Assembly (NCBI GenBank): GCA_000004695.1
Contig: CM000155.2
Span: forward strand, 320,001 to 384,000
Source: Dictyostelium discoideum
Taxonomy: Eukaryota
DNA: 64,000 nt
Direction of reading: 5' to 3'
Of the stretch, positions 1 through 43,863 are shown piece after piece. Position numbers and translations under genes: made by a program. The notes beneath the pieces were generated by a model. The model saw only the letters and a list, made by a program, of their open reading frames with translations. It was not told the DNA's origin and searched no databases. The stretch's first letter is position 1, and every line of letters begins with the position of its first letter.

Positions 1-737
1 ACATATTTAATTTTTTTTCATCTATTTCATTTCTGTTTTTTCTAAATTCTATGTGTATATATTTGTGTTAGTTTTTATTTTTTTTTTTTTTTATTTTTTA
101 TTTTTTATTTTTTTTTTTTTTTTACCTTCTCTTGTAGTAGTTAGTAATCTAAATCTACTCTTTGATGGATAACTTGGTAAATTTCTAATTAAAAATCTAT
201 ATTTATGAATCATAACATTCCCACTCATCATCTTTGAAATTTTATTATTTACAAATTAAAAAAAAAAAAAAAAAAAATAAAATGAAAAAAAAAAAAAAAA
301 TGAAAATGAAATGAAATAAAAATAAAAAAAAAAAAAAAAACAAAAATAGTGTTTTTGGATTTAAAAACAAAAAATAAAAAATAAAATAAAAAATAAAAAA
401 ATGAATTTAAATTAAAAAGATAATTAATTTTAATTTAGTAGTATTATTATTATTATTATTATTATTTGATGCGATTTATTGGATAAATTAAAATCTATAT
501 ATAATAATAAAAATAAAAATAAAAAAAAAATAAAAAAAAATAAAATAAAAAATAAAATAAAAATAAAAAGATCTTGACTCGTTTTTTAAAAAAAAAAAAT
601 TATTTTTTTTTATTTTTTTTTTTATTTTTATTTTTATTTTTATTTTTAAAAAAAAAAAAAACCGACTGTTTTTTTTTTGAATTTTTTTTTTTTATTTTTG
701 TTTGTCCCAACATATTTATATATAATTAATACCAAAA

Positions 738-3422: not shown

Positions 3423-3494
3423 TCCTCATTGGTGTAGTCGGTAACACTCTAGTCTTTCACACTGGTACCTCGGGTTCGATTCCCGAATGGGGAG
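3423..3494 (+). tRNA. tRNA-Glu (anticodon UUC)
   Basis: A 72-nt cloverleaf. Acceptor stem tcctcat pairs with atgggga (one G-U pair). D-arm is ggtgtagtcggtaacac. Anticodon loop is cTTTCAc with anticodon TTC. T-arm is cgGGTTCGATTCccg. The discriminator is g. There is no intron. Confidence 0.85.
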
Positions 3495-3524
3495 CTTTTT
3501 AAAAAATATATTTGGTAGATCACT

Positions 3525-12923: not shown

Positions 12924-13072
12924 AAAGTTGGTTAAATTGGTAGATTTACAAGTATATCTCAATAAATGATATTTTTATAACAATTTTATAATACTTATTT
13001 AAAAACTATACATCTATTTTACATGATATTGAATTAGAAGGTCCATTTGGTCAACTTTGTAAAATGATTGGG
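12924..13072 (+). other. two short orphan fragments (about 53 and 62 bp) homologous to tgr-like array coding sequence
   Basis: 12924..12976 (aaagttggttaaattggtagatttacaagtatatctcaataaatgatattttt) matches array sequence gaaaaggttaaattggtagatttacaagttaatatctcaataaatggtattttt. 13011..13072 (catctattttacatgatattgaattagaaggtccatttggtcaactttgtaaaatgattgg) matches acatctatctcatgtgatattgaattggtaggtccattcgatcaactttgtaaaatcaaattt. There is no open frame. Confidence 0.6.
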
Positions 13073-13291: not shown

Positions 13292-16043
13292 TTATTTGTT
13301 TGATGAGAGCAGCACCAACAGAATCAACACAACCAATTGTAATACCTGAAATTGCCCACCTGATAGTTTGGATGATTCACTATTTCCTTCAGCACCGATT
13401 GATGGTGATGGAGATATTGATATTTGAATTTCTTCAATTTTAACATCATAATTATATGATGTTGAGCCTAATTGGAGATATAATACTCCTGATGTTTCAT
13501 TAACAAATGAATTTGAATGGCATGATAAACAATCAGTACTATTTGTAATATCGATTTCATTTGAACTTAATATTGGATTACTATCATAAAATGTTTCATT
13601 TGGTGATAAACTACATTGTAAATTACATAAAAGAGAAACATTTTGTGATGAAAGTGCCAAGCTTGCATGAATATTACCTGATAAACCAACACCACCCACT
13701 GTTATTGAAATACCTTCTTTTTTATTTTTAATGGTTGGAACAACTGTAATCTTTGGTTTAAAATATGTTAAGAATGCATTTGGTCCTAAATTATCTCCAA
13801 TGAATGTTGAAACAAGTAGTGGACTCTCTATACTATCAGTTCTGACTATTAACATCTTTTCATCATGAGTAATAATCGTGGTATTTTTATTATTTGCTAA
13901 TACTTTAACTTTGAATTCATCTTCATTTGTTAATAAATTCTTACCAGAAACTGTGATTGTACCTCCACAACCAATTGTTTTATTATCTATATTTATTATA
14001 CCATTAATAACAGGTGGAAATGTTAAACTAAATAATGATTCCATATTAATTCCATCTACAGTAATATCAATTGGACCATAATCATATGAATTCAATGTTT
14101 TAATTGTTAATTGATTATCTTTTAATGCTAAAATTTCTGATGAAATATCATTACCATCGAAATAGACTTGAATTAATGGTATTGAGTTACCGAAATTATT
14201 TCCATGAAATGTAATATTAAATTGATCTTTAGAAAATTTACGATGCTCGATTATTGGAGGAGCATATGAGTATCCATCACTAACTGTCTCTGAGTTTAAT
14301 TTGAATATGAATTGTTTATTTAAACCAGTACCATATGGTGTTGAACATTTTGTTTTATAGTAACCAGATGTTAATGATTGTGATGATGGTATTGAACATT
14401 GGGTGGCTGATGATGAATTACCAATAGTAATACTTGGTGTTGATGATGAAATTAATGGACAATCCATATAATATATTTCAATATTTAATGTTCCATTAGA
14501 TACATTTGGTCTATTAATTACATTAATAATTAATGATGCAGAAATTGAAATTGTATTTGAGGAAATATTAGAACGAGTAAAACTAATATTAAAAGATCTA
14601 CATCTTAAATGAGGTAATTTAAATGTTAAACTCTTTTCATCAGATGTAACATTTAATTGGTCAATTTTTAAATAACTATTAGTTCCATCAGCATACAATT
14701 GAACGAATGATTCTTTATTTTTACCAAAATTTGTACCAATTAATGTAACGAAACCATTTGAATATGATCCACTTGATAATGTTGGAATATTATATGTAAA
14801 TGATACATTATTATTACTTGTTGAATTGCAACCTCCGAAATTAACGTTAACTGGTAAATCTCTACCACCATATTCATTTGGATCTAATTGACATTCTAAT
14901 TCGTTTGTTGTTGATTTAATTAATGTACATTGTTTATTTCCAATTGTAATTGAGGGTTTCAATGATGGATATAAAGTCGAAGATAATTTAACACCTTTAA
15001 TTGTTACAATACCTCCTAAATAATTTGATACTGATGATATTGATGTTATTATTGCTGGAAAACAATGAGTAAAATCCTTTTGAAGAGTAATTTTATTTAC
15101 CTTAATATTAATAGACATTGGACCAAGATCAGGTCTACTAAAGTTATTCACTTGAATTTGTGTATGATTTACTGAAATTATAAAATTTGTTTGATTAATA
15201 CCTCCCAGAAAAACCTCTACCAACTTTTTATCTGTAAAGAAGTTATCACCATTAATTGTTAATATCCCTAATGATTCGTCTGAAACAGTACTTGATATTT
15301 TAGGTGATTTGTATGAAAATGGAATAGGAAAATCACCTTCATCTTCAAAGTTAATTTCAAAATTTCCAGAACCTGGTGGAAATGATACAGTGATATTATT
15401 ACAGTCAAAAGAAGGATCAGAGAAATTACCTTTAACAACAAAAGAAACACCATTTCCATAGTTACTTTTAATAAAATTAGGACCTCCCCTGAATCTTAAA
15501 TAATTACCAGTAAATACTACATCACCTCCAGACGTTGCCGGTTTTTTATTAAACTTGATATCACTTACAAATTGAAATGTATATCCAGTACCAGAAAATT
15601 TATCTATATCTGTAAGATTAAATGAACAATTTTCAACTGGATTTGATAGTTCTTTTGCACATACCTTACTATGAGCACTACCCCATAATCTTGAGAATGG
15701 TTCATCTGAATGGAATGTACAAAGTCTCATACTACCAACAACGACACTACAATTGAAATAATTTGGTGCCATTTCATATCTGGGTGTTGTTTCGTTTTGA
15801 TACATAATTAAACGGGTAGGGTAAGAACGATCGCTTGGATAATTAAAATAATGTATTGTAAATGATTTTTCACTAATTGTTGCAACTAATTAAAATAAAT
15901 TAATTTCATAAACAAATTAATTATCAATAATTAAAAATATAATGATACTTACTATATGCCATTGGATCTTCCATTGAATATGGATATCCTAATTTAAAAA
16001 TTGAGAATAAAAAAAAAACTAGTAATATTATTTTATTTTCCAT
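13292..16043 (-). CDS. secreted IPT/TIG-repeat surface protein with GPI-type hydrophobic C-terminus; join(15953..16043,13292..15885)
   Basis: Exon 1 is [30 protein letters not shown] plus 1 nt, with donor A|GTAAGT. The 67-nt intron ends aattAG. Exon 2 of 2594 nt (phase 1) contains the 837-aa ORF. IPT-like units such as [24 protein letters not shown] and [10 protein letters not shown]...[17 protein letters not shown] are present. The C-terminus is ...[16 protein letters not shown]. Confidence 0.65.
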
Positions 16044-18917: not shown

Positions 18918-21906
<2,989 letters not shown>

Positions 21907-22350
21907 TTTAAAAATCTTTTTTAAAGTAAAATAAATTTAATTTTTGTAAATCATCTTATCAACTGTCCAAATAGTTGATCATTCTAAAAAATAAATAAAT
22001 AAATCATATAAATAAATTAAAAATTTATACAAATATAAAATAAATAAACTAAAAATCAAATAAATAAAAATAGTTTTATTAATAAAAAATTAATACTCTT
22101 GTAATAATTACACTTAATAATTAATTTTTTTTTTTTTTTTCAATATTGTTAATTATTGTTTTTAAATCTTTTTTTTTTTTAAAAAAAAATAAAAGAATAA
22201 ATATTTAAATTGGTGCTATAAACTGTTTGGACAATTGTGTTTTTGAATTTGTTAAATCTTTTCTTTTTTTTTTTCTCTTTAATAGTCTAAAAAATATTAA
22301 AGAAAAATAATAATAATAATAATTCTGTTTTCTATTTTTTTTTTTTTTAA

Positions 22351-22383
<33 letters not shown>

Positions 22384-22599
22384 CTTTAATTATTATATAA
22401 ATAAATAAGATGTTGGTTTCTTTTTTTAAAATCAGTTGGTTACATTCAATGAATTATTTTCATTATTGAATTATTATTATTATTTTTATTATTATTTACC
22501 GCCAATACATTTAAAACTATTGGTTGTTTGATATTTATTTTTACTAATGAATAAGTTTTCTATCCTCGTGTAATTTGGTGTTCAAATTGATAATGTTCC

Positions 22600-23712
22600 A
22601 AAAAAACCAATAATCTAAAATGAATCCATAAAAAGAAATATAAATTTTATTTTATTTATAATTATATTCTCAACGATTTAAATCATTTAATTATTTTATT
22701 ACTTTCGTTTAGGCGCTTTTTTTCCCTGCAGTCAGGAAAAAATAATTTAAAATTTCCCTACAACAGAAATTACAATTTTAAATGGAGACCAACTAACCCG
22801 TACTGAAATTTATTATGAATTACCAATAAAATCAAGTTGTTCAATTGTTTCGAACCAAATGATTAAATGTCTTGGTAATTTTATAAATTATTTAGATTTA
22901 TTTAAAAATGGTAAAATTAAAATACAATTTTCAATATGATTATAATTGATAATATCATAAACCAGTGGAGTTGAAAACAAGAGATTGGTTTACAAATTTA
23001 ATCGATGGAGTTATATCAATTTTAAAATCTGGAGAAGTTACATCACAAACAATTAGATATATATAACTTGAACTGGCTTCATTGAGAATGAAAATGGATC
23101 ACTCATAAAAATAATTGGATTGTGATGAATTATTAATTAATGGTGAAAATTTTAATGAAAATACAATTTACAATACATCTGTATATTGCTTTTCAAAAAA
23201 ACAAGTTTATAATTGTTCATTTATAAACTATACATCTATCTCATGTGATATTGAATTGGTAGGTCCATTCGATCAACTTTGTAAAATCAAATTTAATGGG
23301 TAAAGATGAGAATTATAATATTTCAATATCATATTATCCTCCATTAGTTTTAAATTCAACAAAGATTTCGAATTCATCGATTAGTGGAATTATTACAATT
23401 TTTGGTAATGAATTTTATAATCAAATTGATTTAATTACAGTTGGTAAAAGTAAATGTTTAAACTCTACATTTATAAATTCAACATCGATTTCATGTTTTG
23501 TAGAACCTTCAAATTTTATTATTAATCAAACTGAACAACAACAACAACAATATGTTAACATTACAATTAATAGCAAAAGTGGTGGTAATAATTTAATAAT
23601 TTATTCTGGTAATTCAAATAGAATTGATGAAAATAATAAATCAAATAAAAATACAATTGATGATAAACAAACCAACAATGAAATCAAAAATGAATCCATA
23701 AAAGAAATATAA
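22600..23712 (+). pseudogene. decayed edge copy of the tgr-like array: orphan 3' tail (22600..22690), junction, then a C-terminal gene fragment (22741..23712) with internal inversion and frameshifts
   Basis: 22619..22690 matches the last ~70 nt of the array genes ([20 protein letters not shown]). A GC-rich junction ggcgctttttttccctgcagtcagg follows. 22790 onward matches [18 protein letters not shown]... Then 22960..23120 is the reverse complement of the neighbouring coding block (it matches the antisense [15 protein letters not shown] ORFs of the other copies). The distal end reads in frame only with an extra g at aatggGtaaagatg and a 1-nt loss before the tail. There is no upstream signal exon. 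Confidence 0.7.
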
Positions 23713-24608
23713 ATTTAATTTTATTTATAATTATATTCTCAACGATTTTAATCATTTAATTAAATTTATTACTTTCGTTATAAAAAAAATTAAACTCACA
23801 CCAAAAACAATGATTTAGTATATATAAAAATGATTATTTTTAGTGGTTTTGTGTCAAATAAAAAAAAATAATAATACAATAATAAATTTTGAACATGTTG
23901 TTTTTTTTTTTTAATTTTTTTTTTTTTAATTATTTTTATAATAATTATTTTTTTGTTTTTACTATTTGATAAGTGTGTTATTGTGAATTTTGATAATTAA
24001 AATAATATATAAAAATCAAAAATAATTAAAAATATTACCACTTCTCATAAACTACTTTTTATGGTAGTGGTTGAAAAAAAAAAAAAATAATAATAATTTT
24101 AATTTCAATTAAAAAAAACAAGCCCAAAAAAGTTTAATACAATAAATAGTATTCTAATATGATGAAAGAAACATCAAGTGGTGGGTGGTAAACTTGGCAC
24201 ACAGTGTTAAAAAAAAACAATATGAGTAATATTGAAAATCATACAACAAAACTGATAATATTAAAAGAAATTAGTGGGATGTGTGTGTTGAAAAACATTT
24301 TTCAATAAATTATGTGATTGTTTATTTTTAATTTAATATTGAAGCATTACCTTATTGTTTTTATTATTATTTTTATTATTATTATTTTTTTTTTTTTTTT
24401 TTTTTATTATCAATATTTTTGTTTTTTTTAATTATTATTAATATTTATGTTTTTTTTTAATTATTAATATTTTTGTTTTTAAAAAATTTTTATAATTATT
24501 ATTTTTATTTTTAAATAATTTTTTTTCCAACCCAAACCCGTAATATTAAATTTTTTTCCCTTTTCAAAAAAACAATTTCATTATTAAAATAATAAATAGT
24601 AAATCAAA

Positions 24609-24768
24609 ATGAAATTTTTTATATTATTTTTTATTTTATATTTAGTTTCTGATACATTAGGACATTTAAATGAACCAGTTGTCAAGAGTAAATATTTAAT
24701 ATAAAAATAATTTAATCTTTTTTTTTATATTGTTTTTTCCGGTTTGGGTTTTTTTTTTTTTCCAAATT

Positions 24769-24833
<65 letters not shown>

Positions 24834-24955
24834 TTTGGTTATTGTTATTTACTATTTTTAATTTTTTTTAATGTGTTAATATTTAACTAGTTAAAAAAAT
24901 ACAAATATTCAATTTTGTAACCACTTGTCAATATAATTAAAGAAATTTGCAATTG

Positions 24956-25018
<63 letters not shown>

Positions 25019-27624
25019 AGTTTAAAATTAATATCTATAAATATTAATATTAATAAATATTAATCATTTAATAGATACATTCTCTATATTTTTGTATTTT
25101 TTTAAAAAGAAATCGATGGTTTCCAACACTAATTTTTTCTAATGATTTTATTTTAATTTCAGATTTTACATACACAAAACAATCATTGGAATATACATAT
25201 GATATTGATAGTACATATTATATAAAATGGATTTTTTCAAATTTGGAATATGAATTGGTTTTTGAATGTAAAAATAATAGCAAAGAAAGAACATGTACTG
25301 CTGGTATGTCCATTGATATTGCTAAAAATTTACATGGTCAAATAAAGGTATGCATACGTGGAATTGATAATAATGGTGTATTAGATTGCCATATTGCTTT
25401 TTATGAAGAATATTTTCCAAAGCCAATTATTGAAGGTGACTTTAAACCATCTACCAAAGGTGGTCCTACTATTATGAAAGGTTATTATTTGGCAATTGGT
25501 GCATACTACTATACCATTATCCCTGATACTAGATTGGGTATAATAGGTGATATTTTTAGTAACTCTATTGATGTCACAAATTTAATACTAGACTATAAAG
25601 GTGGTTGTGGCCCAGGAACTATTCAATGGTCAAATGATTTTAAATATAGTTTCAATCATTCAAATCCAATCATTGAAAATATTTTTATTGAAGGTTCATC
25701 TTTTATATCAAAAGGTTCTAATTTTTGTAATTCTTCTGATTCAATTCAAATTTATTTAGATGGTGTTCAAATTGATAAATCAAAAATAAAATCAATTGAT
25801 CATGAGCAATTTGAAATAATTTACACTCAACTATATTCAAAATCAATCAATGTTAAAATAGTATCTGGTGGACTTGAATCGAATATTTACAAATTGGATT
25901 TTAAACCGATACCTTTAAAAATTAATAGTGTTCCAAGATTAAAAGGTGGTTCAGTTACAATAATTGGTGAAAGACTATCTCCACAAGTATATAATTCAAC
26001 AATCATTGTTAAAATTGGTCAATATGATTGTAAAAATGTAATCTCATCAAAAAATGAAATTCTCTGTAATTTAGAATCGGTTCAAAATGTTGAAAAGGTT
26101 AAATTGGTAGATTTACAAGTTAATATCTCAATAAATGGTATTTTTAATGAAAATAATTTATTATTCTCATTCGATGTACCAATAATGTCAGATTTTATAC
26201 TTCCTCAAGGTGAAGTTAAATTAGTTGGTGATTGTTTTGGTTCTTCACAATTGACTCAAGTTAAAATTGACGATGTGTTACAATCCAATATAACAATTAA
26301 TATTAATGAAAAAGAAACAACACTTTCATTTAAGCCAATTAAACCAATTAAAAAATCAAAGTTATATATAATTGTCAATGGTACAAAATCAAATACTATT
26401 GAAATTGATTCATCATTTTTTGTAAAAAGTGTTCCATCTTCACCTTCAGTAAATGGTCAAATTGTAAACTTTACACTTTTCAATATAAATCCAAATAATG
26501 TAAATGCAACACCAATTATGATTTTTCAAAATAATAGTTCAATAAATGCAATTGATTATAAAAATTCAAATGAATACTCAACTCACACATACTCCTTTGA
26601 TATTCCAAAAAGTTGTGGGAGAAATGAGATTACAATTTTAATTGGAGACCAACTAACCCGTACTGAAATTTATTATGAATTACCAATAATATCAAGTTGT
26701 TCAATTGTTCCAAATCAAATGATTAAATGTCTTGGTAATTTTTTAAATTATCTAGATTTATTTAAAAATGGTAAAATTAAAATACAATTTTCAAATATGG
26801 TAATAATTGATAATATTCCAAACAATTCAATTATTTTTATGAGTGATTCATTTTCATTCCCAATGAAGCCAGAGTATAGTTCAAGTGATATATATCTTAT
26901 TGTTTGTGATGAAACTTCTCCATATTTTAAAGTTGATATAACTCCATCGCTTAAATTTGTGAGCCAATCTCTTGTTTTCAACTCCACTGGTGGTGAATTA
27001 TTAATTAATGGTGAAAATTTTAATGAAAATACAATTTACAATACATCTGTATATTGCTTTTCAAATAAACAAGTTTATAATTGTTCATTTATAAACAATA
27101 CATCTATCTCATGTGATATTGAATTGGTAGGTCCATTCGATCAACTTTGTAAAATCAAATTTAATGGTAAAGATGAGAATTATAACATTTCAATATCATA
27201 TTATCCTCCATTAGTTTTAAATTCAACAACGATTTCGAATTCATCGATTGGTGGAATTATTATAATTTTTGGTAATGAATTTTATAATCAAATTGATTCA
27301 ATTACAGTTGGTAAAAGTAAATGTTTAAACTCTACATTTATAAATTCAACATCGATTTCATGTTTTGTAGAACCTTCAAATTTTATTATTAATCAAACTG
27401 AACAACAACAACAATATGTTAACATTACAATTAATAACAAAAGTGGTGGTAATAATTTAATAATTTATTCTGTTAATTCAAATAGAATTGATGAAAATAA
27501 TAAATCAAATAAAAATACAATTGATGATAAACAAACCAACAATGAAATCAAAAATGAATCCATAAAAAGAAATATAAATTTAATTTTATTTATAATTATA
27601 TTCTCAACGATTTTAATCATTTAA
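24609..27624 (+). CDS. tgr-like IPT/TIG-repeat surface protein, array copy 1 (GPI-type tail); join(24609..24687,25163..27624), about 846 aa
   Basis: Exon 1 is [26 protein letters not shown] plus 1 nt, with donor A|GTAAAT. The 475-nt intron contains a 66-nt poly-T and ends ttttaatttcAG. Exon 2 (phase 1) runs ...[20 protein letters not shown]... through repeated IPT-like units ([12 protein letters not shown]...[19 protein letters not shown]; [53 protein letters not shown]; [44 protein letters not shown]). It ends in the hydrophobic tail [16 protein letters not shown] then TAA. Confidence 0.6.
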
Positions 27625-27868
27625 TTAAATTTATTACTTTCGTTATAAAAAAAAATTATACTCCCACCAAAAACAATGATTGAGTATATATAAAAAATGA
27701 TTATTTTTAGTGGTTTTGTGTTAAATAAAAAAAAAAAAATACAATAATAAATTTTGAACATGTTGTTTTTTTTTTTTTATATTTTTTTTTTTTTCTAATT
27801 ATTTTTAAAATAATTTTATTTTTTTTTTTTATTGGTTTTACTGTTTGGGTTATTTTTAATCTCAAATT

Positions 27869-27922
<54 letters not shown>

Positions 27923-28444
27923 TTTGATTATTGTTGTTATTTACTATTTTTAATTTTTTAATATTAAAGTCTCCAAATATTCAGCTATTGTTTATTTTTT
28001 ATATCATTGTTAATGTCATTAATAACTATAACTAGTTATTAATATAAATAAATATCAATCATTTTGTAGATATATTATCTATTTATGTATTTTATAAAAG
28101 ATATTGATAATTTCCAACACCAATTTTTAATTTTTTTATTTGGTTCATTAATATTTTTTTAAAAATTTTTCAATGTTTTAACCAGTTGTCAATGTAATTA
28201 AAGATATTTGCAATTGTTTATTAAAAAAAAAAAAAAAAATTGTTTGTTATTTTTTTAAAAAAAAAAAAAAAAGAGCTACTGTTCATTTTTTAATAAATTA
28301 ATTTTAAATTAATATCTATAACTATTAATATTAATAAATATTAATCATTTATTAGATACATTATCTCTATTTTTTGTATTTTTTTTAAAAAGAAATCAAT
28401 AGTTTCAACACTAATTTTTTCTTATGATTTTATTTTAATTTTAG

Positions 28445-31400
28445 ATTTTACATGCACAAAACAATCATTGGAATATACATATGATATTGATAGTACATAT
28501 TATATAAAATGGATTTTTTCAAATTTGAAATATGAATTGGTTTTTGAATGTAAAAATAATAGCAAAGAAAGAACATGTACTGCTGGTATGTCCATAGATA
28601 TTGCTAAAAATTTACATGGTCAAATAAAGATGTGCGGAACTGATAATAATGGTGTATTAGATTGCCATATGCGTGTATACGAAGAATATTTTCCAAAGCC
28701 AATTATTGAAGGTGACTTTAAACCATCTACCAAAGGTGGTCCTACTATTATGAAAGGTTATTATTTGGCAGTTGGAGTAATTCCTTACTTTACTATTATC
28801 CCTGGTACTATATTGGGAACAATAGGTGATATTTTTAGTAACTCTATAGATGTCACAAATTTAATACTAGACTATAAAGGTGTTGTGGCCCAAGAACTAT
28901 TCAATGGCCAAATGATTTTAAATATAGTTTCAATCATTCAAATCCAATCATTGAAAATATTTTTATTGAAGGTTCATCTTTTATATCAAAAGGTTCTAAT
29001 TTTTGTAATTCTTCTGATTCAATTCAAATTTATTTAGATGGTGTTCAAATTGATAAATCAAAAATAAAATCAATTGATCATGAGCAATTTGAAATAATTT
29101 ACACTCAACTATATTCAAAATCAATCAATGTTAAAATAGTATCTGGTGGACTTGAATCGAATATTTACAAATTGGATTTTAAACCTATACCTTTAAAAAT
29201 TAATAGTGTTCCAAGATTTAAAGGTGGTTCAATTACAATAATTGGTGAAAGACTATCTTCACAAGTAAATAATTCAACAATCATTGTTAAAATTGGTCAA
29301 TATCATTGTAAAAATGTAATCTCATCAAAAAATGAAATTCTCTGTAATTTAGAATCGGTTCCAAATGTTGAAAAGGTTAAATTGGTAGATTTGCAAGTTA
29401 ATATCTCAATAATGGTATTTTTAATGAAAATAATTTATTATTCTCATTCGATGTACCAATAATATCAGATTTTATACTTCCTCAAGGTGAAGTTAAATTA
29501 GTTGGTGATTGTTTTGGTTCTTCACAATTGACTCAAGTTAAAATTGACGATGTGTTACAATCCAATATAACAATTAATATTAATGAAAAAGAAACAACAC
29601 TTTCATTTAAGCCAATTAAACCAATTAAAAAGTCAAAGTTATATATAATTGTCAATGGTACAAAATCAAATACTATTGAAATTGATTCATCATTTTTTGT
29701 AAAAAGTGTTCCATCTTCACCTTCAGTAAATGGTCAAATAGTAAACTTTACACTTTTCAATATAAATCCAAATAATGTAAATGCAACACCAATTATGATT
29801 TTTCAAGATAATAGTTCAATAAAAGCAATTGATTATAAAAATTCGAATGAATACTCGACTCACACATACTCTTTTGATATTCCAAAAAGTTGTGGGAGAA
29901 ATGAAATTACAATTTTAATTGGAGACCAACTAACCCGTACTGAAATTTATTATGAATTACCAATAATATCAAGTTGTTCAATTGTTTCAAATCAAATGAT
30001 TAAATGTCTTGGTAATTTTACAAATTATTTAGATTTATTTAAAAATGGTAAAATTAAAATACAATTTTCAAATATGATAATAATTGATAATATTCCAAAC
30101 AATCCAATTATTTTTATGAGTGATTCATTTTCATTCCCAATAAAGCCAGAGTATAGTTCAAGTGATATATATCTTATTGTTTGTGATGAAACTTCTCTAG
30201 ATTTTAAAGTTGATATAACTCCATCGCTTAAATTTGTGAGCCAATCTCTTGTTTTCAACTCCACTGGTGGTGAATTATTAATTAATGGTGAAAATTTTAA
30301 TGAAAATACAATTTACAATACATCTGTATATTGCTTTTCAAATAAACAAGTTTATAATTGTTCATTTATAAACAGTACATCTATCTCATGTGATATTGAA
30401 TTGGTAGGTCCATTCGATCAACTTTGTAAAATCAAATTTAATGGAAAAGATGAGAAGTATAACATTTCAATATCATATTATCCTCCATTAGTTTTAAATT
30501 CAACAACGATTTCGAATTCATCAATTGGTGGAATTATTACAATTTTAATTGGAGACCAACTAACCCGTACTGAAATTTATTATGAATTACCAATAATATC
30601 AAGTTGTTCAATTGTTTCAAATCAAATGATTAAATGTCTTGGTAATTTTACAAATTATTTAGATTTATTTAAAAATGGTAAAATTAAAATACAATTTTCA
30701 AATATGGTAATAATTGATAATATTCCAAACAATCCAATTATTTTTATGAGTGATTCATTTTCATTCCCAATGAAACCAGAGTATAGTTCAAGTGATATAT
30801 ATCTTATTGTTTGTGATGAAACTTCTCCATATTTTAAAGTTGATATAACTCCATCGCTTAAATTTGTGAGCCAATCTCTTGTTTTCAACTCCACTGGTGG
30901 TGAATTATTAATTAATGGTGAAAATTTTAATGAAAATACAATTTACAATACATCTGTATATTGCTTTTCAAATAAACAAGTTTATAATTGTTCATTTATA
31001 AACAATACATCTATCTCATGTGATATTGAATTGGTAGGTCCATTCGATCAACTTTGTAAAATCAAATTTAATGGTAAAGATGAGAAGTATAACATTTCAA
31101 TATCATATTATCCTCCATTAGTTTTAAATTCAACAACGATTTCAAATTCATCAATTGGTGGAATTATTACAATTTTTGGTAATGAATTTTATAATCAAAT
31201 TGATTCAATTACAGTTGGTAAAAGTAAATGTTTAAACTCTACATTTATAAATTCAACATCGATTTCATGTTTTGTAGAACCTTCAAATTTTATTATTAAT
31301 CAAACTGAACAACAACAACAATATGTTAACATTAAAATTAATAGCAAAAGTGGTGGTAATAATTTAATAATTTATTCTGGTAATTCAAATAGAATTGATG

Positions 31401-31531
31401 AAAATAATAAATCAAATAAAAATACAATTGATGATAAACAAACCAACAATGAAATCAAAAATGAATCCATAAAAAGAAATATAAATTTAATTTTATTTAT
31501 AATTATATTCTCAACGATTTTAATCATTTAA
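28445..31531 (+). pseudogene. tgr-like array copy 2: lacks the signal exon, has two frameshifts and a 627-bp in-frame internal tandem duplication
   Basis: The coding region is split over ORFs 28468..29037, 29172..29462 and 29528..31531. A g is missing at ~28891 (ggtgttgtggcc versus ggtggttgtggcc in other copies). An a is missing at ~29410 (ctcaataatggt versus ctcaataaatggt). Segment ~29918..30544 ([14 protein letters not shown]...SIGGIITI) is repeated at ~30545..31180, and the copies differ at about 1% of sites. The upstream ATG exon seen in other units is absent: 27790-27840 joins the preceding 3' flank directly to the intron tail ttttactgtttgggtt. Confidence 0.75.
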
Positions 31532-32151
31532 TTTAATTTATTATTTTCGTTATAAAAAAAAAATTAAACTCCTACCAAAAAAAATTATTGAGTATATATA
31601 AAAAATGATTATTTTTAGTGGTTTTGTGTTAAATAAAAAAAAAAAATAATACAATAATAAATTTTGAACATGTTGTTTTTTTTTTTTATAATTTTTTTTT
31701 TTTTTAATTATTTTTAAAATAATTATTTTTTTGTTTTTACTATTTGATAAGTGTGTTATTGTGAATTTGATAATTAAAATAATATATAAAATCAAAAATA
31801 ATTAAAAATATAACCACTTCTCATAAACTACTTTTTATGGTAGTGGGTGAAAAAAAAAAAAATAATAATTTTCATTTCAATTAAAAAAACAAGCCCAAAA
31901 AAGTTTAATACAATTAATAATATTCTAATATGATGAAAGAAACATCAAGTGGTGGGTGTGGTAAACTTGGCACACAGTGTTAAAAAAAAACAATATGAGT
32001 AATATTGAAAATCATACAACAAAACTGATAATATTAAAATAAATTAGTGGGATGTGTGTGTTGAAAAACATTATTTAATAAATTATGTGATTGTTTATTT
32101 TTAATTTAATATTGAAGCATTACCTTATTGTTTTTATTATTATTTTATTAT

Positions 32152-32196
<45 letters not shown>

Positions 32197-32395
32197 TATC
32201 AATATTTTTTTTTTTTTTAATTATTATTAATATTTATGTTTTTTTTTTAATTATTAATATTTTTGTTTTTATATATTATTTTAATTTTTATTTTTTTTTA
32301 TTTTTTTTATTTCAAATCATTAACAGTAATAATAAATTATTTAACATCCTCAAAAAAACAATTTCATAATTAAAATAATAAATAGTAAATCAAAA

Positions 32396-32559
32396 ATGAA
32401 ATTTATTATATTATTTTTTATTTTATATTTAGTTTCTGATACATTAGGATCTTTAAATGAACCAGTTGTCAAGAGTAAATATTTTAAATATAAATATAAT
32501 TTAATTTTTTTTTTTTATTGTTTTTATTGTTTGGGTTATTTTTATTTCTCAAATTTAAT

Positions 32560-32621
<62 letters not shown>

Positions 32622-35592
32622 TTTGAATTATATTTGTTATTTACTATTTTTAATTTTTTAATATTAAAGTCTCCAAATATTCAGCTATTGTTTATTTTTT
32701 ATATCATTGTTAATGTCATTAATAACTATAACTAGTTATTAATATAAATAAAAATCAATCATTTTGTAGATATATTATCTATTTATGTATTTTATAAGAT
32801 ATTGATAATTTCCAACACTAATTTTTAATTTTTTGTTTGGTTCATTATTATTTTTTTAAAAATTGTTCAATGTTTTAACCACTTTTCAATGTAATTAAAG
32901 ATATTTGCAATTGTTTATTAAAAAAAAAAAAAAAAATTGTTTGTTATTTTATTAAAAAAAAAAGAGCTACTGTTCATTTTTTAATAAATTAATTTTAAAT
33001 CAATATCTATAACAATTGATATTAATAAATAATAATCATTTAATAGATACATTATCTATATTTTTTGTAATTTTTTTAAAAAGAAATCAATAGTTTCCAA
33101 CACTAATTTTTTCTTATGATTTTATTTTAATTTCAGATTTTACATGCACAAAACAATCATTGGAATATACATATGATATTGATAGTACATATTATACAAA
33201 ATGGATTTTTTCAGATTTGGAATATGAATTGGTTTTTGAATGTAAAAATAATAGCAAAGAAAGAACATGTACTGCTGGTATGTCCATTGATATTGCTAAA
33301 AATTTACATGGTCAAATAAAGATGTGCGGAACTGATAATAATAGTGTATTAGATTGCCATTCGAATTACGAAGAATATTATCCAAAGCCAATTATTGAAG
33401 GTGACTTTAAACCATCTACCAAAGGTGGTCCTACTATTATGAAAGGTTATTATTTGGCAGTTGGTGCATACTACTATAACATTATCCCTTATACTAGATT
33501 GGGTATTATAGGTGATGTTCATAGTAACTCTATAGATGTCACAAATTTAATACTAGACTATAAAGGTGGTTGTGGCCCAAGAACTATTCAATGGCCAAAT
33601 GATTTTAAATATAGTTTCAATCATTCAAATCCAATCATTGAAAATATTTTTATTGAAGGTTCATCTTTTATATCAAAAGGTTCTAATTTTTGTAATTCTT
33701 CTGATTCAATTCAAATTTATTTAGATGGTGTTCAAATTGATAAATCAAAAATAAAATCAATTGATCATGAGCAGTTTGAAATAATTTACACTCAACTATA
33801 TTCAAAATCAATCAATGTTAAAATAGTATCTGGTGGACTTGAATCGAATATTTACAAATTGGATTTTAAACCTATACCTTTAAAAATTAATAGTGTTCCA
33901 AGATTAAAAGGTGGTTCAATTACAATAATTGGTGAAAGACTATCTTCACAAGTAAATAATTCAACAATCATTGTTAAAATTGGTCAATATGATTGTAAAA
34001 ATGTAATCTCATCAAAAAATGAAATTCTCTGTAATTTAGAATCGGTTCCAAATGTTGAAAAAGTTAAATTGGTAGATTTACAAGTTAATATCTCAATAAA
34101 TGGTATTTTTAATGAAAATAATTTATTATTCTCATTCGATATACCAATAATATCAGATTTTATACTTCCACAAGGTGAAGTTAAATTAGTTGGTGATTGT
34201 TTTGGTTCTTCACAATTGACTCAAGTTAAAATTGACGATGTATTACAATCCAATATAACAATTAATATTAATGAAAAAGAAACAACACTTTCATTTAAGC
34301 CAATTAAACCAATTAAAAAATCAAAGTTATATATAATTGTCAATGGTACAAAATCAAATACTATTGAAATTGATTCATCATTTTTTGTAAAAAGTGTTCC
34401 ATCTTCACCTTCAGTAAATGGTCAAATTGTAAACTTTACTCTTTTCAATATAAATCCAAATAATGTTAATGCAACACCAATTATGATTTTTCAAGATAAT
34501 AGTTCAATAAAAGCAATTGATTATAAAAATTCAAATGAATACTCAACTCACACATACTCTTTTGATATTCCAAAAAGTTGTGGGAGAAATGAAATTACAA
34601 TTTTAATTGGAGACCAACTAACCCGTACTGAAATTTATTATGAATTACCAATAATATCAAGTTGTTCAATTGTTTCAAATCAAATGATTAAATGTCTTGG
34701 TAATTTTTTAAATTATTTAGATTTATTTAAAAATGGTAAAATTAAAATACAATTTTCAAATATGGTAATAATTGATAATATTCCAAACAATCCAATTATT
34801 TTTATGAGTGATTCATTTTCATTCCCAATGAAGCCAGAGTATAGTTCAAGTGATATATATCTTATTGTTTGTGATGAAACTTCTCTAGATTTTAAAGTTG
34901 ATATAACTCCATCGCTTAAATTTGTGAGCCAATCTCTTGTTTTCAACTCCACTGGTGGTGAATTATTAATTAATGGTGAAAACTTAAATGAAAATACAAT
35001 TTACAATACATCTGTATATTGCTTTTCAAATAAACAAGTTTATAATTGTTCATTTATAAACAATACATCTATATCATGTGATATTGAATTGTTAGGTCCA
35101 TTCGATCAACTTTGTAAAATCAAATTTAATAGTAAAGATGAGAATAATAACATTTCAATATCATATTATCCTCCATTAGTTTTAAATTCAACAACGATTT
35201 CAAAATCATCAACTGGTGGAATTATTACTATTTTTGGTAATGAATTTTATAATCAAATTGATTCAATTACAGTTGGTAAAAGTAAATGTTTAAACTCTAC
35301 ATTTATAAATTCAACATCGATTTCATGTTTTGTAGAACCTTCAAATTTTAATATTAACCAAACTGAACAACAAAAAAAACAATATGTTAACATTATAATT
35401 AATGGTAAAAGTGGTGGTAATAATTTAATAATTTATTCTGGTAATTCAAATAGAATTGATGAAAATAACAAATCAAATAAAAATACAATTGACGAAAAAC
35501 AAACCAATAATGAAATCAAAAATGAATCTATTAAAAGAAATATAAATTTTATATTATTTATAATTATATTCTCAACAATTTTAATCATATAA
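32396..35592 (+). CDS. tgr-like IPT/TIG-repeat surface protein, array copy 3 (GPI-type tail); join(32396..32474,33137..35592)
   Basis: Same architecture as copy 1: exon 1 [26 protein letters not shown] plus 1 nt, donor GTAAAT, a 662-nt intron with a ~75-nt poly-T, acceptor tttcAG at 33135-33136, and the 810-aa ORF 33160..35592 in phase. Confidence 0.6.
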
Positions 35593-36397
35593 TTTAATTT
35601 ATTAATTTCATTGTAAAAAAAAAAAAAAATAAAACTCCAACCAAAAACAATTATTGGGTATATATAAAAAATGATTATTTTTGGTGGGTTAAAAATAAAA
35701 TATAATACAATAATAAATTTTGAACTTATTTTTTTTTTTTTATTTTTTGATAATTTTTTTTTTTTTAATTATTTTTAAAATAATTATTTTTTTGTTTTTA
35801 CTATTTGATAAGTGTGATTGTGAATATTAATAATTTAAATAAAATATAAAATTAAAAATGATTAAAAATATAACCACTTATCATAAAATACTTTTTTTGG
35901 CAGTGGTTGAAAAAAAAAAAAAAAATAATAATATTCATTTCAATTAAAAAAAACACATCCAAAAAAGTTTAATAAAAAATAAATAGTATTCTAAAATGAT
36001 GAAAGAAACACCAATTGGTGGGTGTGGTAAACTTGACACAGTGTTTAATAAACATGATGAGTAATATTGAAAATCATACAACAAAACTGATAAAAATAAA
36101 TTAGTGTGGGAGTGTGTGTTGAAAAACATTTTTCAATAAATTATTTGATTGTTTTTTTTTAATTTACTATTGAAGCATCGTTACCTTAATTTTATTATTA
36201 TTATTATTATTATTTTTTTTTTTCTTTAATATTTTTTTTAATTATTATTATAATTTTTATTTTTTTTAATTATTAATATTTTTGTTTTTATATTTTTTTA
36301 ATTATTAATATTTTTTATTTTTTTATTTCAAATCATAAATTATTTAACATCCTCAAAAAAACAATTTTAATATTAAAATAATAATAGTAAATCAACA

Positions 36398-39105
36398 ATG
36401 AAAATTATTATATTTTTTTTTATTTTATATTTATTTTCCGATACATAAGGATCTTTAGTTGTCAAGAGTAAATATATAAATTAAAATAATTTTAATTTTT
36501 TTTAGTTTTCATTATATCTATATGTACAAAATATATATGTGTCTTAGATAATCATTGAATAGATACATTATTTATATTTTGTATTTTTTTAAAAAGAAAT
36601 CAATGGTTTCCAACTCTAATTTTTTCTAATATTTACATTTTAATTTCAGATTTTACATGCACAAAACAATCATTGGAATATACATATGATATCGATAGTA
36701 CATATTATACAAAATGGATTTTTTCAGATTTGGAATATGAATTGGTTTTTGAATGTAAAAATAATAGCAAAGAAAGAACATGTACTGCTGGTATGTCCAT
36801 TGATATTGCTAAAATTTTACATGGTCAAATAAAGAAGTGCGGAACTGATAATAATAGTGTATTAGATTGCCATTTGAAATACGAAGAATATTATCCAAAG
36901 CCAATTATTGAAGGTGACTTTAAACCATCTACCAAAGGTGGTCCTACTATTATGAAAGGTTATTATTTGGCAGTTGGTGCATACTACTATAACATTATCC
37001 CTTATACTAGATTGGGTATTATAGGTGATGTTCATTGTAACTCTATAGATGTCACAAATTTAATACTAGACTATAAAGGTGGTTGTGGCCCAAGAACTAT
37101 TCAATGGCCAAATGATTTTAAATATAGTTTCAATCATTCAAATCCAATCATTGAAAATATTTTTATTGAAGGTTCATCTTTTATATCAAAAGGTTCTAAT
37201 TTTTGTAATTCTTCTGATTCAATTCAAATTTATTTAGATGGTGTTCAAATTGATAAATCAAAAATAAAATCAATTGATCATGAGCAGTTTGAAATAATTT
37301 ACACTCAACTATATTCAAAATCAATCAATGTTAAAATAGTATCTGGTGGACTTGAATCGAATATTTACAAATTGGATTTTAAACCTATACCTTTAAAAAT
37401 TAATAGTGTTCCAAGATTAAAAGGTGGTTCAATTACAATAATTGGTGAAAGACTATCTTCACAAGTAAATAATTCAACAATCATTGTTAAAATTGGTCAA
37501 TATCATTGTAAAAAGGTAATCTCATCAAAAAATGAAATTCTATGTAATTTAGAATCGGTTCCAAATGTTGAAAAAGTTAAATTGGTAGATTTACAAGTTA
37601 ATATCTCAATAAATGGTATTTTTAATGAAAATAATTTATTATTCTCATTCGATATACCAATAATATCAGATTTTATACTTCCACAAGGTGAAGTTAAATT
37701 AGTTGGTGATTGTTTTGGTTCTTCACAATTAACTCAAGTTAAAATTGACGATGTGTTACAATCTAATATAACAATTAATATTAATGAAAAAGAAACAACA
37801 CTTTCATTTAAGCCAATTAAACCAATTAAAAAATCAAAGTTATATATAATTGTCAATGGTACAAAATCAAATACTATTGAAATTGATTCATCATTTTTTG
37901 TAAAAAGTGTTCCATCTTCACCTTCAGTAAATGGTCAAATTGTAAACTTTACTCTTTTCAATATAAATCCAAATAATGTTAATGAAACACCAATTATGAT
38001 TTTTCAAGATAATAGTTCAATAAATGCAATTGATTATAAAAATTCAAATGAAAACTCGACTCACACATACTCTTTTGATATTCCAAAAAGTTGTGGGAGA
38101 AATGAAATTACAATTTTAATTGGAGACCAACTAACCCGTACTGAAATTTATTATGAATTACCAATAATATCAAGTTGTTCAATTGTTTCAAATCAAATGA
38201 TTAAATGTCTTGGTAATTTTTTAAATTATCTAGATTTATTTAAAAATGGTAAAATTAAAATACAATTTTCAAATATGGTAATAATTGATAATATTCCAAA
38301 CAATCCAAATATTTTTATGAGTGATTCATTTTCATTCCCAATGAAGCCAGAGTATAGTTCAAGTGATATATATCTTATTGTTTGTGATGAAACTTCTCCA
38401 GATTTTAAAGTTGATATAACTCCATCGCTTAAATTTGTGAGCCAATCTCTTGTTTTCAACTCCACTGGTGGTGAATTATTAATTAATGGTGAAAATTTTA
38501 ATGAAAATACAATTTACAATACATCTGTATATTGCTTTTCAAATAAACAAGTTTATAATTGTTCATTTATAAACAATACATCTATCTCATGTGATATTGA
38601 ATTGGTAGGTCCATTCGATCAACTTTGTAAAATCAAATTTAATGGTAAAGATGAGAATTATAACATTTCAATATCATATTATCCTCCATTAGTTTTAAAT
38701 TCAACAACGATTTCGAATTCATCGATTGGTGGAATTATTATAATTTTTGGTAATGAATTTTATAATCAAATTGATTCAATTACAGTTGGTAAAAGTAAAT
38801 GTTTAAACTCTACATTTATAAATTCAACATCGATTTCATGTTTTGTAGAACCTTCAAATTTTATTATTAATCAAACTGAACAACAACAACAACAATATGT
38901 TAACATTACAATTAATAACAAAAGTGGTGGTAATAATTTAATAATTTATTCTGGTAATTCAAATAGAATTGATGAAAATAATAAATCAAATAAAAATACA
39001 ATTGATGATAAACAAACCAACAATGAAATCAAAAATGAATCCATAAAAAGAAATATAAATTTAATTTTATTTATAATTATATTCTCAACGATTTTAATCA
39101 TTTAA
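36398..39105 (+). CDS. tgr-like array copy 4: exon 2 (36650..39105) is intact but the signal-peptide exon at 36398 carries an in-frame TAA and a 9-nt deletion; possibly a pseudogene
   Basis: Exon 2 (810-aa ORF 36673..39105) is full length. The homologous exon 1 reads atgaaaattattatattttttttt..ttttccgatacaTAAggatctttagttgtcaagag, against ..gatacaTTAggatctttaaatgaaccagttgtcaagag in copies 3 and 5. The intron is reduced to ~170 nt, compared with ~660 nt in the other units. Confidence 0.5.
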
Positions 39106-39943
39106 TTAAATTTATTACTTTCGTTATAAAAAAAATTATACTCCCACCAAAAACAATGATTGAATATATATAAAAAATGATTATTTTTAGTGGTTTTGTG
39201 TTAAATAAAAAAAAAAAAAATACAATAATAAATTTTGAACATGTTGTTTTTTTTTTTTTATATTTTTTTTTTTTTCTAATTATTTTTATAATAATTATTT
39301 TTTTGTTTTTGCTATTTGATAAGTGTGTTATTGTGAATTTTGATAATTAAAATAATATATAAAATCAAAAATAATTAAAAATATAACCACTTCTCATAAA
39401 CTACTTTTTATGGTAGTGGGTGAAAAAAAAAAAAATAATAATTTTCATTTCAATTAAAAAAAACAAGCCTAAAAAATTTTAATACAATTAATAGTTTTCT
39501 AATATGATGAAAGAAACATCAAGTGGTGGGTGTGGTAAACTTGGCACACAGTGTTAAAAAAAAACAATATGAGTAATTTTGAAAATCATACAACAAAACT
39601 GATAATATTAAAATAAATTAGTGGGATGTGTGTGTTGAAAAACATTATTTAATAAATTATGTGATTTGTTTATTTTAATTTAATATTGAAGCATTACCTT
39701 ATTGTTTTTATTATTATTTTTTTTTTTTTTTTTTTTTTTTTTTATTATTATCAATATTTTTTTTTTTTAATTATTATTAATATTTATGTTTTTTTAATTA
39801 TTAATATTTTTGTTTTTATATATTATTTTAATTATTATTTTTTTATTATTTTTTTTATTTCAAATCATTTACAGTAATAATAAATTATTTAACATCCTCA
39901 AAAAAACAATTTCATTATTAAAATAATAAATAGTAAACCAAAA

Positions 39944-40105
39944 ATGAAATATATTATATTATTTTTTATTTTATATTTAGTTTCTGATACATTAGGATCT
40001 TTAAATGAACCAGTTGTCAAGAGTAAATATTTTAAATATAAAAATAATTTTATTTTTTTTTTTTTATTGTTTTTACTGTTTGGGTTATTTTTATATCTCA
40101 AATTT

Positions 40106-40151
<46 letters not shown>

Positions 40152-43100: not shown

Positions 43101-43863
43101 TAGTAAAACTGATGGTAGAAGTTTTTATGAAAAAAATAAAAAATGGATAACAGTATTAATAATAATTGGAAGTTTGGCATTACTTTTATTTATCTTTTTT
43201 GGTATAATTTATTGTAATAGAAAAAACGGTACTGTTATCTATTGGAAATATATTATGTGTCGCGGAATCAAAGAAAAAAAATATAAATTTAAAAATAGAA
43301 AAGAGATAAAACAAATACAAGAATTAAGACATACATTGGATAATGCAGAGACAATTTTTGCTGACTTTGAATTAGATAATATAATAACTTATTCAGAGTA
43401 TCAACTTACACCCGAAAATCGTCTACGAAAAGAACAACAAGAATTAGCTCGAGAAAATTATATTGAAACTTACCCAGATTATTATTTACATATAAATAAA
43501 ACTAAAAATTTACCAAATAATGATTCATTACCTCCAAATCAAGTTGAAAATTTACCAAATAATAATTCATTACCTCCAAATAAAATTGAAAATTCATTAC
43601 CTCCGAATCAAACTGAAAATTTACCAAATAATAATTCATTACCTCCAAATCAAACTGAAACATTACAAGAAGATTCTTTACCTCCAAATCAAACTGAAAC
43701 ATTACCAGAAGTTTCATTACCTCCAAATCATATTGAAACATTACCAGAAGTTTCATTACCTCCAAATCAAATTGAAACATTACCAGAAGTTTCATTACCT
43801 CCAAATCATATTGAAAAACTAACAGACAATTCATCATCATCTCAAGACCCAAGCTCTTCATAA
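39944..43863 (+). CDS. tgr-like IPT/TIG-repeat protein, array copy 5, with a transmembrane helix and a repetitive cytoplasmic tail; join(39944..40022,40679..43863)
   Basis: Exon 1 is [26 protein letters not shown] plus 1 nt, the intron is 656 nt, and the 1053-aa ORF begins at 40702. It is identical in layout to the other copies up to ~42850, then diverges: Q12 tract, N-rich linker, TM helix [23 protein letters not shown], basic stretch [17 protein letters not shown], and 8 tandem 11-12-aa units SLPPNQ(T/I)E(N/T)LP(N/E)(N/V). Confidence 0.65.

Follow-up and report, generated by a model that had tools for sequence, protein, structure and literature searches.

A putative tgr pseudogene relic with a small internal inversion at the proximal edge of a tandem tgr array in Dictyostelium discoideum

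Introduction

The tgr family of Dictyostelium is subject to quick duplication and decay; AX4 carries 38 tgr genes together with 26 pseudogenes, and gene fragments are common (PMC12745789). Microinversions with short, imperfect flanking repeats also form a known class of rearrangement, which has been ascribed to template switching or to microhomology-mediated break-induced replication (MMBIR) (PMC8755829, PMC8604942). A four-point model has been put forward for template-switch mutations (PMC5453318), and two simultaneous breaks have been argued to be an unlikely origin of microinversions (PMC8755829). Here, we describe a locus in which tgr fragments and a microinversion occur together. It lies within 64,000 nucleotides (nt) of very AT-rich D. 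discoideum DNA (contig CM000155.2, positions 320,001 to 384,000; hereafter the window, in which all positions are numbered from its first letter). The window contains a tandem array of five plus-strand tgr genes (c1 to c5, spanning 25186 to 43863) of the TgrO1-like type, with Ig and TIG domains. Just upstream of this array, the segment from 22576 to 23712 consists of broken and partly inverted pieces of tgr coding sequence. We give a probability of about 0.68 to the reading that this segment is the nonfunctional debris of one or two former tgr units at the eroded proximal edge of the array, with junctions that arose stepwise. The segment is a known kind of scar and no new kind of element.

Results

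The region from 22540 to 23830 was compared with the rest of the window by filtered BLAST; an undusted run had been swamped by poly-T and AT repeats and was redone with information thresholds. Three blocks were recovered against every intact copy, and gene positions are given below as coding nt of c4. Block E (22766 to 22955, plus strand) is colinear with coding nt 1432 to 1622 and is 95 to 96% identical to all intact copies (38104 to 38294 in c4). Block F (22956 to 23123, 168 nt, minus strand) is an in-place inversion of coding nt ~1630 to 1803. Block G (23124 to 23712, plus strand) is again colinear, from nt ~1796 to near the end of the gene, with 97.9% identity to c4. As seen in the alignments, positions 22943 to 23139 match c4 38282 to 38485 on the minus strand (86% including a 7-nt gap, E=3e-64), and positions 23122 to 23830 are colinear with c4 38468 to 39176 at 97.9%. 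A minus-strand match of this strength between colinear flanks corresponds to a microinversion. When both strands were aligned, the inverted match held for all five intact copies, c1 included, and the inversion of about 160 bp that the original prediction had placed at 22960 to 23120 is now located to the base. Block F is present only once in the relic, so it was turned in place, and no neighboring block has been duplicated in inverted form. The blocks share 86 to 98% DNA identity with their intact neighbors and, by this homology, are assigned to the TgrO1-like group of the tgr family.

Block F also coincides, as had been proposed, with the region in which antisense open reading frames (ORFs) of 79 amino acids (MELKTRDW...) are called in intact copies (26748 to 26987, 30025 to 30264, and 30655 to 30894, minus strand). 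In the relic, which we call copy 0, this antisense reading runs on the plus strand and meets a stop after ~35 codons. We found no evidence that the 79-amino-acid ORFs are genes.

The reading frame of copy 0 is broken several times. The lost A and the extra G noticed earlier were found at ~22933, where the loss breaks the frame of block E (translation EITILNGDQL...FSI, then a stop), and at 23298 to 23300, where the insertion produces a frameshift in block G. Two further lesions, together with two micropieces at 22576 to 22611 described below, go beyond the earlier observations: a 7-nt deletion within block F at ~23072/23073, and a change from A5 to A4 at 23700 to 23703 that creates a premature stop at 23710 to 23712 and removes the membrane anchor. 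Copy 0 therefore lacks nt 1 to 1431 and the anchor and carries three 1-nt frameshifts, the 7-nt deletion, and the inverted block, and from its sequence it is classed as a pseudogene relic, not a gene. Block G contains ORFs of 62 and 138 amino acids; the latter is annotated as a gene in GCA_054883475.1, and on its own it gave 0 Pfam matches. Downstream, the 3′ untranslated region (UTR) and spacer between copy 0 and c1 (23713 to 25185, plus strand) are homologous to the other array spacers: the c4 unit at 38468 to 40188 aligns with 23122 to 24867 at 92.8%, and 40353 to 40701 align with 24854 to 25185. By this homology, copy 0 is a genuine array unit. A processed (retro-copied) pseudogene was also considered and rejected, since the orphan tail described below is followed by TAGGCGC... 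and not by poly(A), and copy 0 retains its full array spacer.

The structure was also found in a second, independent assembly, GCA_054883475.1 (locus-tag prefix ACTFIT), which is 100% identical to the window over 22000 to 24200 and 99.1 to 99.4% identical across the remainder of the 20 kb that the two have in common. The relic is therefore not an artifact of assembly. In every copy examined from ACTFIR (GCA_054859385.1), ACTFIW, ACTFIZ, and D. citrinum, block F has the standard orientation. Accordingly, the inverted state is derived, and copy 0 is so far alone in having it.

Upstream of copy 0 lies an orphan 3′ tail (piece c; 22612 to 22709, plus strand), which comprises the last 77 nt of coding sequence, encoding the hydrophobic C-terminal anchor, and 20 nt of 3′ UTR. 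It contains the isolated gene end that had been recognized at 22619 to 22690 and is 94.9% identical to the ends of c1 (27546 to 27644) and c4 (39027 to 39125), with E=3e-41, and 93.9% identical to copy 0's own tail (23682 to 23779). It was also picked up as direct-repeat families D1, D4, D6, and D7. Two shorter pieces precede it on the same strand. Micropiece a (TGGTGTTCAAATTGATAA, 22576 to 22593) corresponds to tgr coding nt ~567 to 584, matches all five intact copies at 18/18 positions, and falls on a TIG first-strand-like motif. Micropiece b (AATTGATAATGTTCCAAAAAAACCAAT, 22585 to 22611) corresponds to nt ~1612 to 1638, where the left breakpoint of the inversion lies in the gene. It matches c5 (42315 to 42341) at 25/27 positions and carries a G variant that, among the window copies, c5 alone has. 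The two micropieces overlap by a 9-nt microhomology, AATTGATAA, and micropiece b and the orphan tail share CCAAyAAT (~8 nt); the tail homology may start as early as 22604, as AAACCAAyAAT is common to the end of piece b. Because matches as informative as these occur at a background of 1 per 39 kb of nonarray window DNA, the micropieces are not attributable to chance. Pieces a, b, and c (nt 567 to 584, 1612 to 1638, and 2355 to the end) thus stand in gene order and on one strand.

The outer limit of this material was also defined by synteny. The 3′ flank of the neighboring kinase gene (21907 to 22575) is unique, and synteny with other strains ends with it, ahead of the first tgr-derived sequence. 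ACTFIR aligns with the window from 19367 to 22576 (L003 10297 to 13458, where L numbers denote fetched loci) and then diverges, so that its homology reaches no farther than the first base of piece a, and the ACTFIZ alignment to the kinase flank (L007) reaches 22494. Downstream of the kinase flank, ACTFIR has unrelated genes and no array, and none of these genes were found in the window. The true outer border of the array therefore lies at 22576, and the GC-rich joint is internal, with relic material on either side. The idea that this segment marks a breakpoint at which the array was founded or eroded is therefore retained for the proximal edge, with erosion favored and with the border at 22576 rather than at the joint.

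The position of the array differs among strains. In ACTFIR it adjoins a copine gene ~47 kb away, in ACTFIW the order is copine gene, kinase fragment, and a two-gene tgr array, and in ACTFIZ and D. citrinum tgr genes lie upstream of the kinase and point the opposite way. An array downstream of the kinase is therefore specific to the window's lineage. We also observed 40- to 43-nt orphans of tgr nt 547 to 589 at the edge of the array, close to the copine gene, in ACTFIR (L005 1657 to 1696, plus strand) and ACTFIW (L006 8579 to 8621, minus strand). They share flanking sequence, and their orientations relative to the array are opposite in the two assemblies. Piece a (nt 567 to 584) comes from this stretch of the gene too, and the presence of the orphans at both array edges hints that the piece a scar predates the other scars. 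Kinase gene fragments mixed with tgr pieces were seen beside tgr arrays in ACTFIR (L003 5784 to 7681 and L005 22168 to 23275) and in ACTFIW (L006 8643 to 9317), and the ACTFIR mosaic is present twice, ~47 to 70 kb apart and in inverted orientation. The kinase, tgr, and copine neighborhood has been rearranged repeatedly. A separate observation concerns ACTFIR L005 17860 to 18234 (minus strand), right after the last array gene, which encodes a 124-amino-acid product with a DDE_Tnp_4 match (PIF/Harbinger-type transposase).

Between the orphan tail and block E lies a nonhomologous filler of 56 nt (22710 to 22765), which holds the GC-rich 25-mer at 22712 to 22736. This joint had been described as unlike anything nearby, and we agree: even when 3 mismatches are tolerated, the 25-mer has a single occurrence in the window (0 expected), and no subword of the joint of at least 22 bits recurs elsewhere in the window on either strand. 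Among all related loci fetched (~160 kb), the filler was seen in ACTFIT alone, at the same place. It contains a weak internal palindrome (TTTTTTTCCCTG / CAGGAAAAAA), and its folding as a DNA hairpin is marginal (−5.8 kcal/mol, z=−1.6; 14/200 shuffles fold as well). Several origins were considered for it. A mini-inversion at 22751 to 22765, in which CCCTACAAC would be the reverse complement of GTTGTGGGAG by the 5′ border, was rejected because its composition-aware score was reached in 808/5000 shuffles (p=0.16), and a tRNA origin was rejected because the window's sole tRNA, tRNA-Glu at 3423 to 3495, is not nearby. As regards a transposable-element source, no further copy was found in the window or in the ~160 kb of related loci. 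The 21-mer core matched three bacterial contigs in a metagenome scan, all within one lipoprotein-like gene and with unmatched flanks, which is at chance level.

The borders of the inversion lie a few nt from the arms of a short inverted repeat. The left arm, TAATTGATAAT (22943 to 22953, plus strand; 38282 to 38292 in intact c4), and the right arm, ATTATTAATTA (23129 to 23139, plus strand; 38475 to 38485 in c4, inside a TIG domain-start motif), are complementary at 10/11 positions. The plus- and minus-strand BLAST alignments overlap at both ends (22943 to 22955 on the left and 23122 to 23139 on the right), and an AlphaFold2 (AF2) model of c4 has a low-confidence linker just ahead of the right-arm motif. 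Restoring block F to the standard orientation reveals that 7 nt (TCCAAAC) were lost on the left and that a short ...ATGA sequence flanks the block at either border, inverted at one (TCAT...) and direct at the other. The same derived A is present in the two (ATGA versus GTGA in the intact copies). Manual reading gave the four-point template-switch order 1622 < 1630 < 1796 < ~1803, and one switch and return would reproduce the 7-nt loss and the inverted duplication in a single event. A second inverted repeat (22505 to 22529 and 22601 to 22625, 80% over 25 nt) was set aside as chance, as it is 1 of 35 such pairs in 1.4 kb. A site-specific invertible switch was rejected as well, since the only repeat is 11 nt long and imperfect and both carrying assemblies have the same orientation; no recombinase ORF was found among the window proteins scanned (8 ORFs only).

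Divergence is distributed unevenly over the relic. Substitutions private to copy 0 amount to 5/190 positions in block E (2.6%), 9/159 in block F (5.7%), and 6/590 in block G (1.0%), and the difference between F and G is significant (p=0.001). Compared over 99 nt with its closest copies, the orphan tail shows 5 mismatches, and six of the nine changes in block F are GC to AT. Since the colinear 3′ part runs on without a break into the spacer and c1, gene conversion presumably still homogenizes it, while the inverted block and the isolated tail would escape it.

Next, all tgr copies and fragments, from the window as well as from the fetched loci, were mapped onto c4. The breakpoints fall in zones at equivalent positions of the Ig/TIG-like units (nt 1428 to 1442, 1612 to 1638, 1796 to 1813, 1847 to 1874, and 2065 to 2075), and breakpoint pairs no more than 15 nt apart are in excess (p=0.002). 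The first zone was used four times independently, namely at the 5′ end of copy 0, in a duplication in c2, in a duplication of block E in ACTFIW, and in a deletion in ACTFIT L008; the zone at nt 1612 to 1638 was likewise used four times. In c2, a 633-bp internal tandem duplication (29903 to 31176; 211 codons, c4 nt 1435 to 2075) has an 11-nt microhomology, ATTACAATTTT, at its junction, and its left breakpoint is that of the 5′ end of copy 0. Gene 1 of ACTFIW (L006 10507 to 13142) carries a tandem duplication of block E (c4 nt 1428 to 1638, 70 codons) within a called protein of 920 amino acids. Its junction reads ...AATCCAAAT/GAAATTAC... (the slash marks the join), and its breakpoints are those that bound block E in the relic.

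ACTFIT L008 (8376 to 11573, contig JBTAPE010000001.1) is a scrambled tgr sequence in which nt 365 to 1442 are joined straight to nt 1870 to 2325. The order there is an orphan tail (nt 2259 to 2449), an inverted 5′ piece (nt 1 to 201, minus strand), and then nt 365 to 1442. A reciprocal product holding the 5′ half that copy 0 lacks was looked for, and this locus was rejected as a candidate, since it is a different scrambled copy with unrelated neighbors. A second relic in the window (12931 to 13065, plus strand), just 3′ of a minus-strand tgr gene, is 84 to 85% identical to c4 and joins nt ~904 to 977 to nt ~1874 to 1961, which are equivalent positions of two repeat units.

The AF2 model of c4 is of moderate quality (mean predicted local distance difference test score of 69.5). 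It places low-confidence linkers directly before residues 599 and 687, and a dip at residues 531 to 540, at or just before the cluster at nt 1612 to 1638. The domain-start motifs GG-x-(I/L)-x-I-x-G-x-N-F at residues 599 and 687 lie at or near the breakpoints at nt 1796 to 1813 and 2065 to 2075. A similar first-strand sequence is found at the nt 1432 breakpoint, with no low-confidence linker ahead of it.

The array genes themselves are c1 (25186 to 27624), c2 (28468 to 31531, in three ORFs at 28468 to 29037, 29172 to 29462, and 29528 to 31531), c3 (33160 to 35592), c4 (36673 to 39105), and c5 (40702 to 43863), all on the plus strand. In a Pfam scan of eight window ORFs, the intact neighbors of the relic matched Ig_TgrO1 (PF24612, E=2e-31) and IPT/TIG (PF01833), and the closest database proteins of the array genes are from D. 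discoideum and have the same two domains. The best local alignment was 100% identical, to a protein from ACTFIT, and c1 to c2 differ from ACTFIT DNA by only 5 substitutions in 9 kb. Three AX4 proteins encoded on a 3.6-Mb contig are 93 to 97% identical to the array gene products; compared with the window, AX4 proteins reached 99.5% identity for c1, 97.3% for c3, and 97.6% for c5. The homology of c5 to the other copies stops at c4 nt 2317, and ~830 nt of a different, longer 3′ end follow (43036 to 43863); its ORF has 1,053 amino acids, and the AX4 counterpart has 1,087. Upstream of the relic lies an ankyrin/protein kinase gene (18918 to 21906, plus strand; ORFs 18918 to 21029 and 21082 to 21906) with Pfam Pkinase and Ank matches in the upstream ORF, and a diverged tgr gene (13292 to 15805, minus strand) lies upstream of it. 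A 225-amino-acid query of the kinase domain from the 18918 to 21029 ORF gave 0 protein matches and missed even the identical ACTFIT protein, probably a word-index limit, and the full 703-amino-acid ORF gave three matches only.

Discussion

The stepwise reading of the relic can be put as follows. A first unit, "copy −1," would have been reduced by two internal deletions to the survivors nt 567 to 584, 1612 to 1638, and 2355 to the end. These deletions would have been sealed at the microhomologies AATTGATAA (9 nt) and CCAAyAAT (~8 nt), and the 5′ part of the unit would have been lost at the kinase-flank junction, 22575/22576. Copy 0 starts at nt 1432, and a deletion of ~2.5 to 3 kb may have taken the spacer and the first 1,431 nt, with the 56-nt filler sealing the gap. 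A replicating or repairing polymerase may have switched to the opposite strand and returned at TAATTGATAAT...ATTATTAATTA, thereby inverting nt ~1630 to 1803. Neutral decay would then have added the frameshifts, the 7-nt deletion, and mostly GC-to-AT substitutions. The gene order and common orientation of pieces a to c favor the collapse of a copy by deletions, that is, an eroded rather than a founded edge.

Several points weigh against this reading. The order and number of the events are not resolvable, and only one lineage (the window and ACTFIT) has the structure. Pieces a to c could also have been patched in from a template and need not be what is left of a whole copy, and no donor for the filler was found in the window, in the ~160 kb of related loci, or in the metagenome scan. 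The inverted repeat is short and AT-rich, and a flanking repeat of at least 10/11 occurs in 4.3% of random 174-bp tgr segments (p about 0.04), which is marginal. The intact region has no special single-stranded hairpin or cruciform propensity (z=+0.96), so the repeat probably served only as microhomology. In addition, the divergence of block F could equally reflect error-prone synthesis during the event.

A single complex event is possible but rather unlikely in our assessment. All the junctions (flank/a, a/b, b/c, tail/filler/E, E/F, and F/G) would have been made at once by fork stalling and template switching (FoSTeS) or MMBIR when the array landed beside the kinase gene; the segment would then be a founding scar, and one copy would be enough to supply it. 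Six junctions lie within 560 bp, several with microhomology and in mixed orientations, and comparable complex rearrangements are known elsewhere (PMC4352052). Microhomology is present at a/b (9 nt), at b/c (~8 nt), and at the inversion borders; no template for the filler was found. The motif AATTGATAAT occurs both at the a/b junction and at the left inversion border, and piece b ends where block E would, like the junction of the E-E duplication in ACTFIW. The orphan tail and the inverted block have a similar private divergence of ~5%, and the variable position of the array among strains also agrees with a landing event. However, simple deletions predict the strict order and the one orientation shared by a, b, and c, and template switching needs neither; the nt 547 to 589 orphans at the ACTFIR and ACTFIW array edges suggest that piece a is older. 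The junctions cannot be dated separately, which also limits the case for a single event.

The inversion might instead have arisen from two breaks and end joining of the flipped fragment, whether nonhomologous or microhomology mediated, which we regard as improbable. The small losses and gains at the borders (a loss of 7 nt and the duplication or addition of a few) are common at such junctions. Nevertheless, plain religation does not duplicate ...ATGA in opposite orientations, the borders coincide with an inverted repeat, and two simultaneous breaks 170 bp apart are unlikely (cf. PMC8755829).

It is very improbable that the relic is a retained cassette, either a silent gene conversion donor for active tgr genes or, through block F, a regulated switch or antisense source. 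It has been proposed that tgr fragments near tgrB/C recombine into expressed loci (PMC12745789), and the 98% identity of block G to its neighbors indicates that sequence exchange occurs. On the other hand, the relic has several frameshifts, has lost its anchor, and is missing its promoter-proximal parts. No recombinase gene was found nearby among the eight window ORFs scanned, block F is not flanked by long perfect repeats and has the same single orientation in both relic-carrying assemblies, and the inverted block is the most diverged part of the relic, not the most conserved. Nothing suggests that the relic has a function. Last, a misjoined or collapsed repeat in an AT-rich tandem array has a practically negligible chance, for although near-identical tandem copies misassemble easily, GCA_054883475.1 differs elsewhere in 20 kb yet is 100% identical here, and no intact copy could supply the many private substitutions and indels.

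The relic, in itself a dead piece of a gene, is a well-preserved record of the growth, movement, and decay of an array of tgr genes, which are relatives of the Dictyostelium self-recognition genes. Instead of clean homologous exchange, its junctions display microhomology, filler, and an inversion of the template-switch type. The divergence gradient (~5% in the inverted block and tail versus 1% in the colinear 3′ part) suggests that conversion reaches only those parts of the relic that are colinear with the array. The same few gene positions break repeatedly in independent copies and strains, which points to breakage hotspots at domain-boundary motifs. Most simply, this recurrence is due to short AT-rich, partly palindromic motifs common to the internal repeats. 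We also raise, tentatively, a built-in, microhomology-driven domain shuffling in TgrO1-like genes, with unit starts and linkers as preferred template-switch sites (e.g., ATTACAATTTT, TTATTAATTAATGG, and AATTGATAAT). If so, domain duplications, deletions, and inversions would arise repeatedly, and relics at array edges would be failed by-products. Some of the products, among them the duplications of 70 codons in ACTFIW gene 1 and of 211 codons in c2, are in frame and might be functional. Such shuffling would provide a mechanistic basis for the reported fast birth-and-death evolution and diversification of tgr genes. These findings could guide a population-scale study of tgr structural evolution.

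Unequal recombination between internal domain repeats occurs in genes for adhesion and surface proteins. The breakpoints described here likewise recur at equivalent positions of repeat units; in contrast, the shared sequences are only 4 to 12 nt long, which corresponds to microhomology and not to homologous recombination, and the products are mostly dead. In comparison with microinversions flanked by inverted repeats and with short template-switch mutations (PMC8755829, PMC5453318), including spacer inversions in yeast (PMC8604942), block F is also an in-place reverse complement with borders near a short imperfect repeat, and its border loss and inverted duplication fit one switch and return. 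It is longer, at 168 nt versus 17 to 33 nt for human-chimpanzee microinversions, and unlike in known cases, its arms are not homogenized and the copy 0 block has 5.7% private substitutions and a 7-nt deletion, probably through later decay. The setting is also different, being a pseudogene in a genome of ~78% A+T in which short repeats are common by chance. Rearrangements ascribed to FoSTeS/MMBIR, for example at human PLP1 (PMC4352052), resemble the relic in their cis junctions, their microhomology, and their mixture of deletion, inversion, and filler. They extend over kilobases to megabases, whereas the relic spans hundreds of bases, and here no long segments have gained in copy number and a single event is only one possible origin. 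The closest likeness in kind is to the tgr pseudogenes of PMC12745789, which belong to the same family, are partial and frame-broken, and lie beside intact paralogues, in arrays whose position and copy number vary among strains. In that survey, fragments below 50% of full length are dropped and fine structure is not given; its text does not mention microhomology and treats inversions at the scale of loci only. The relic described here is resolved to the base.

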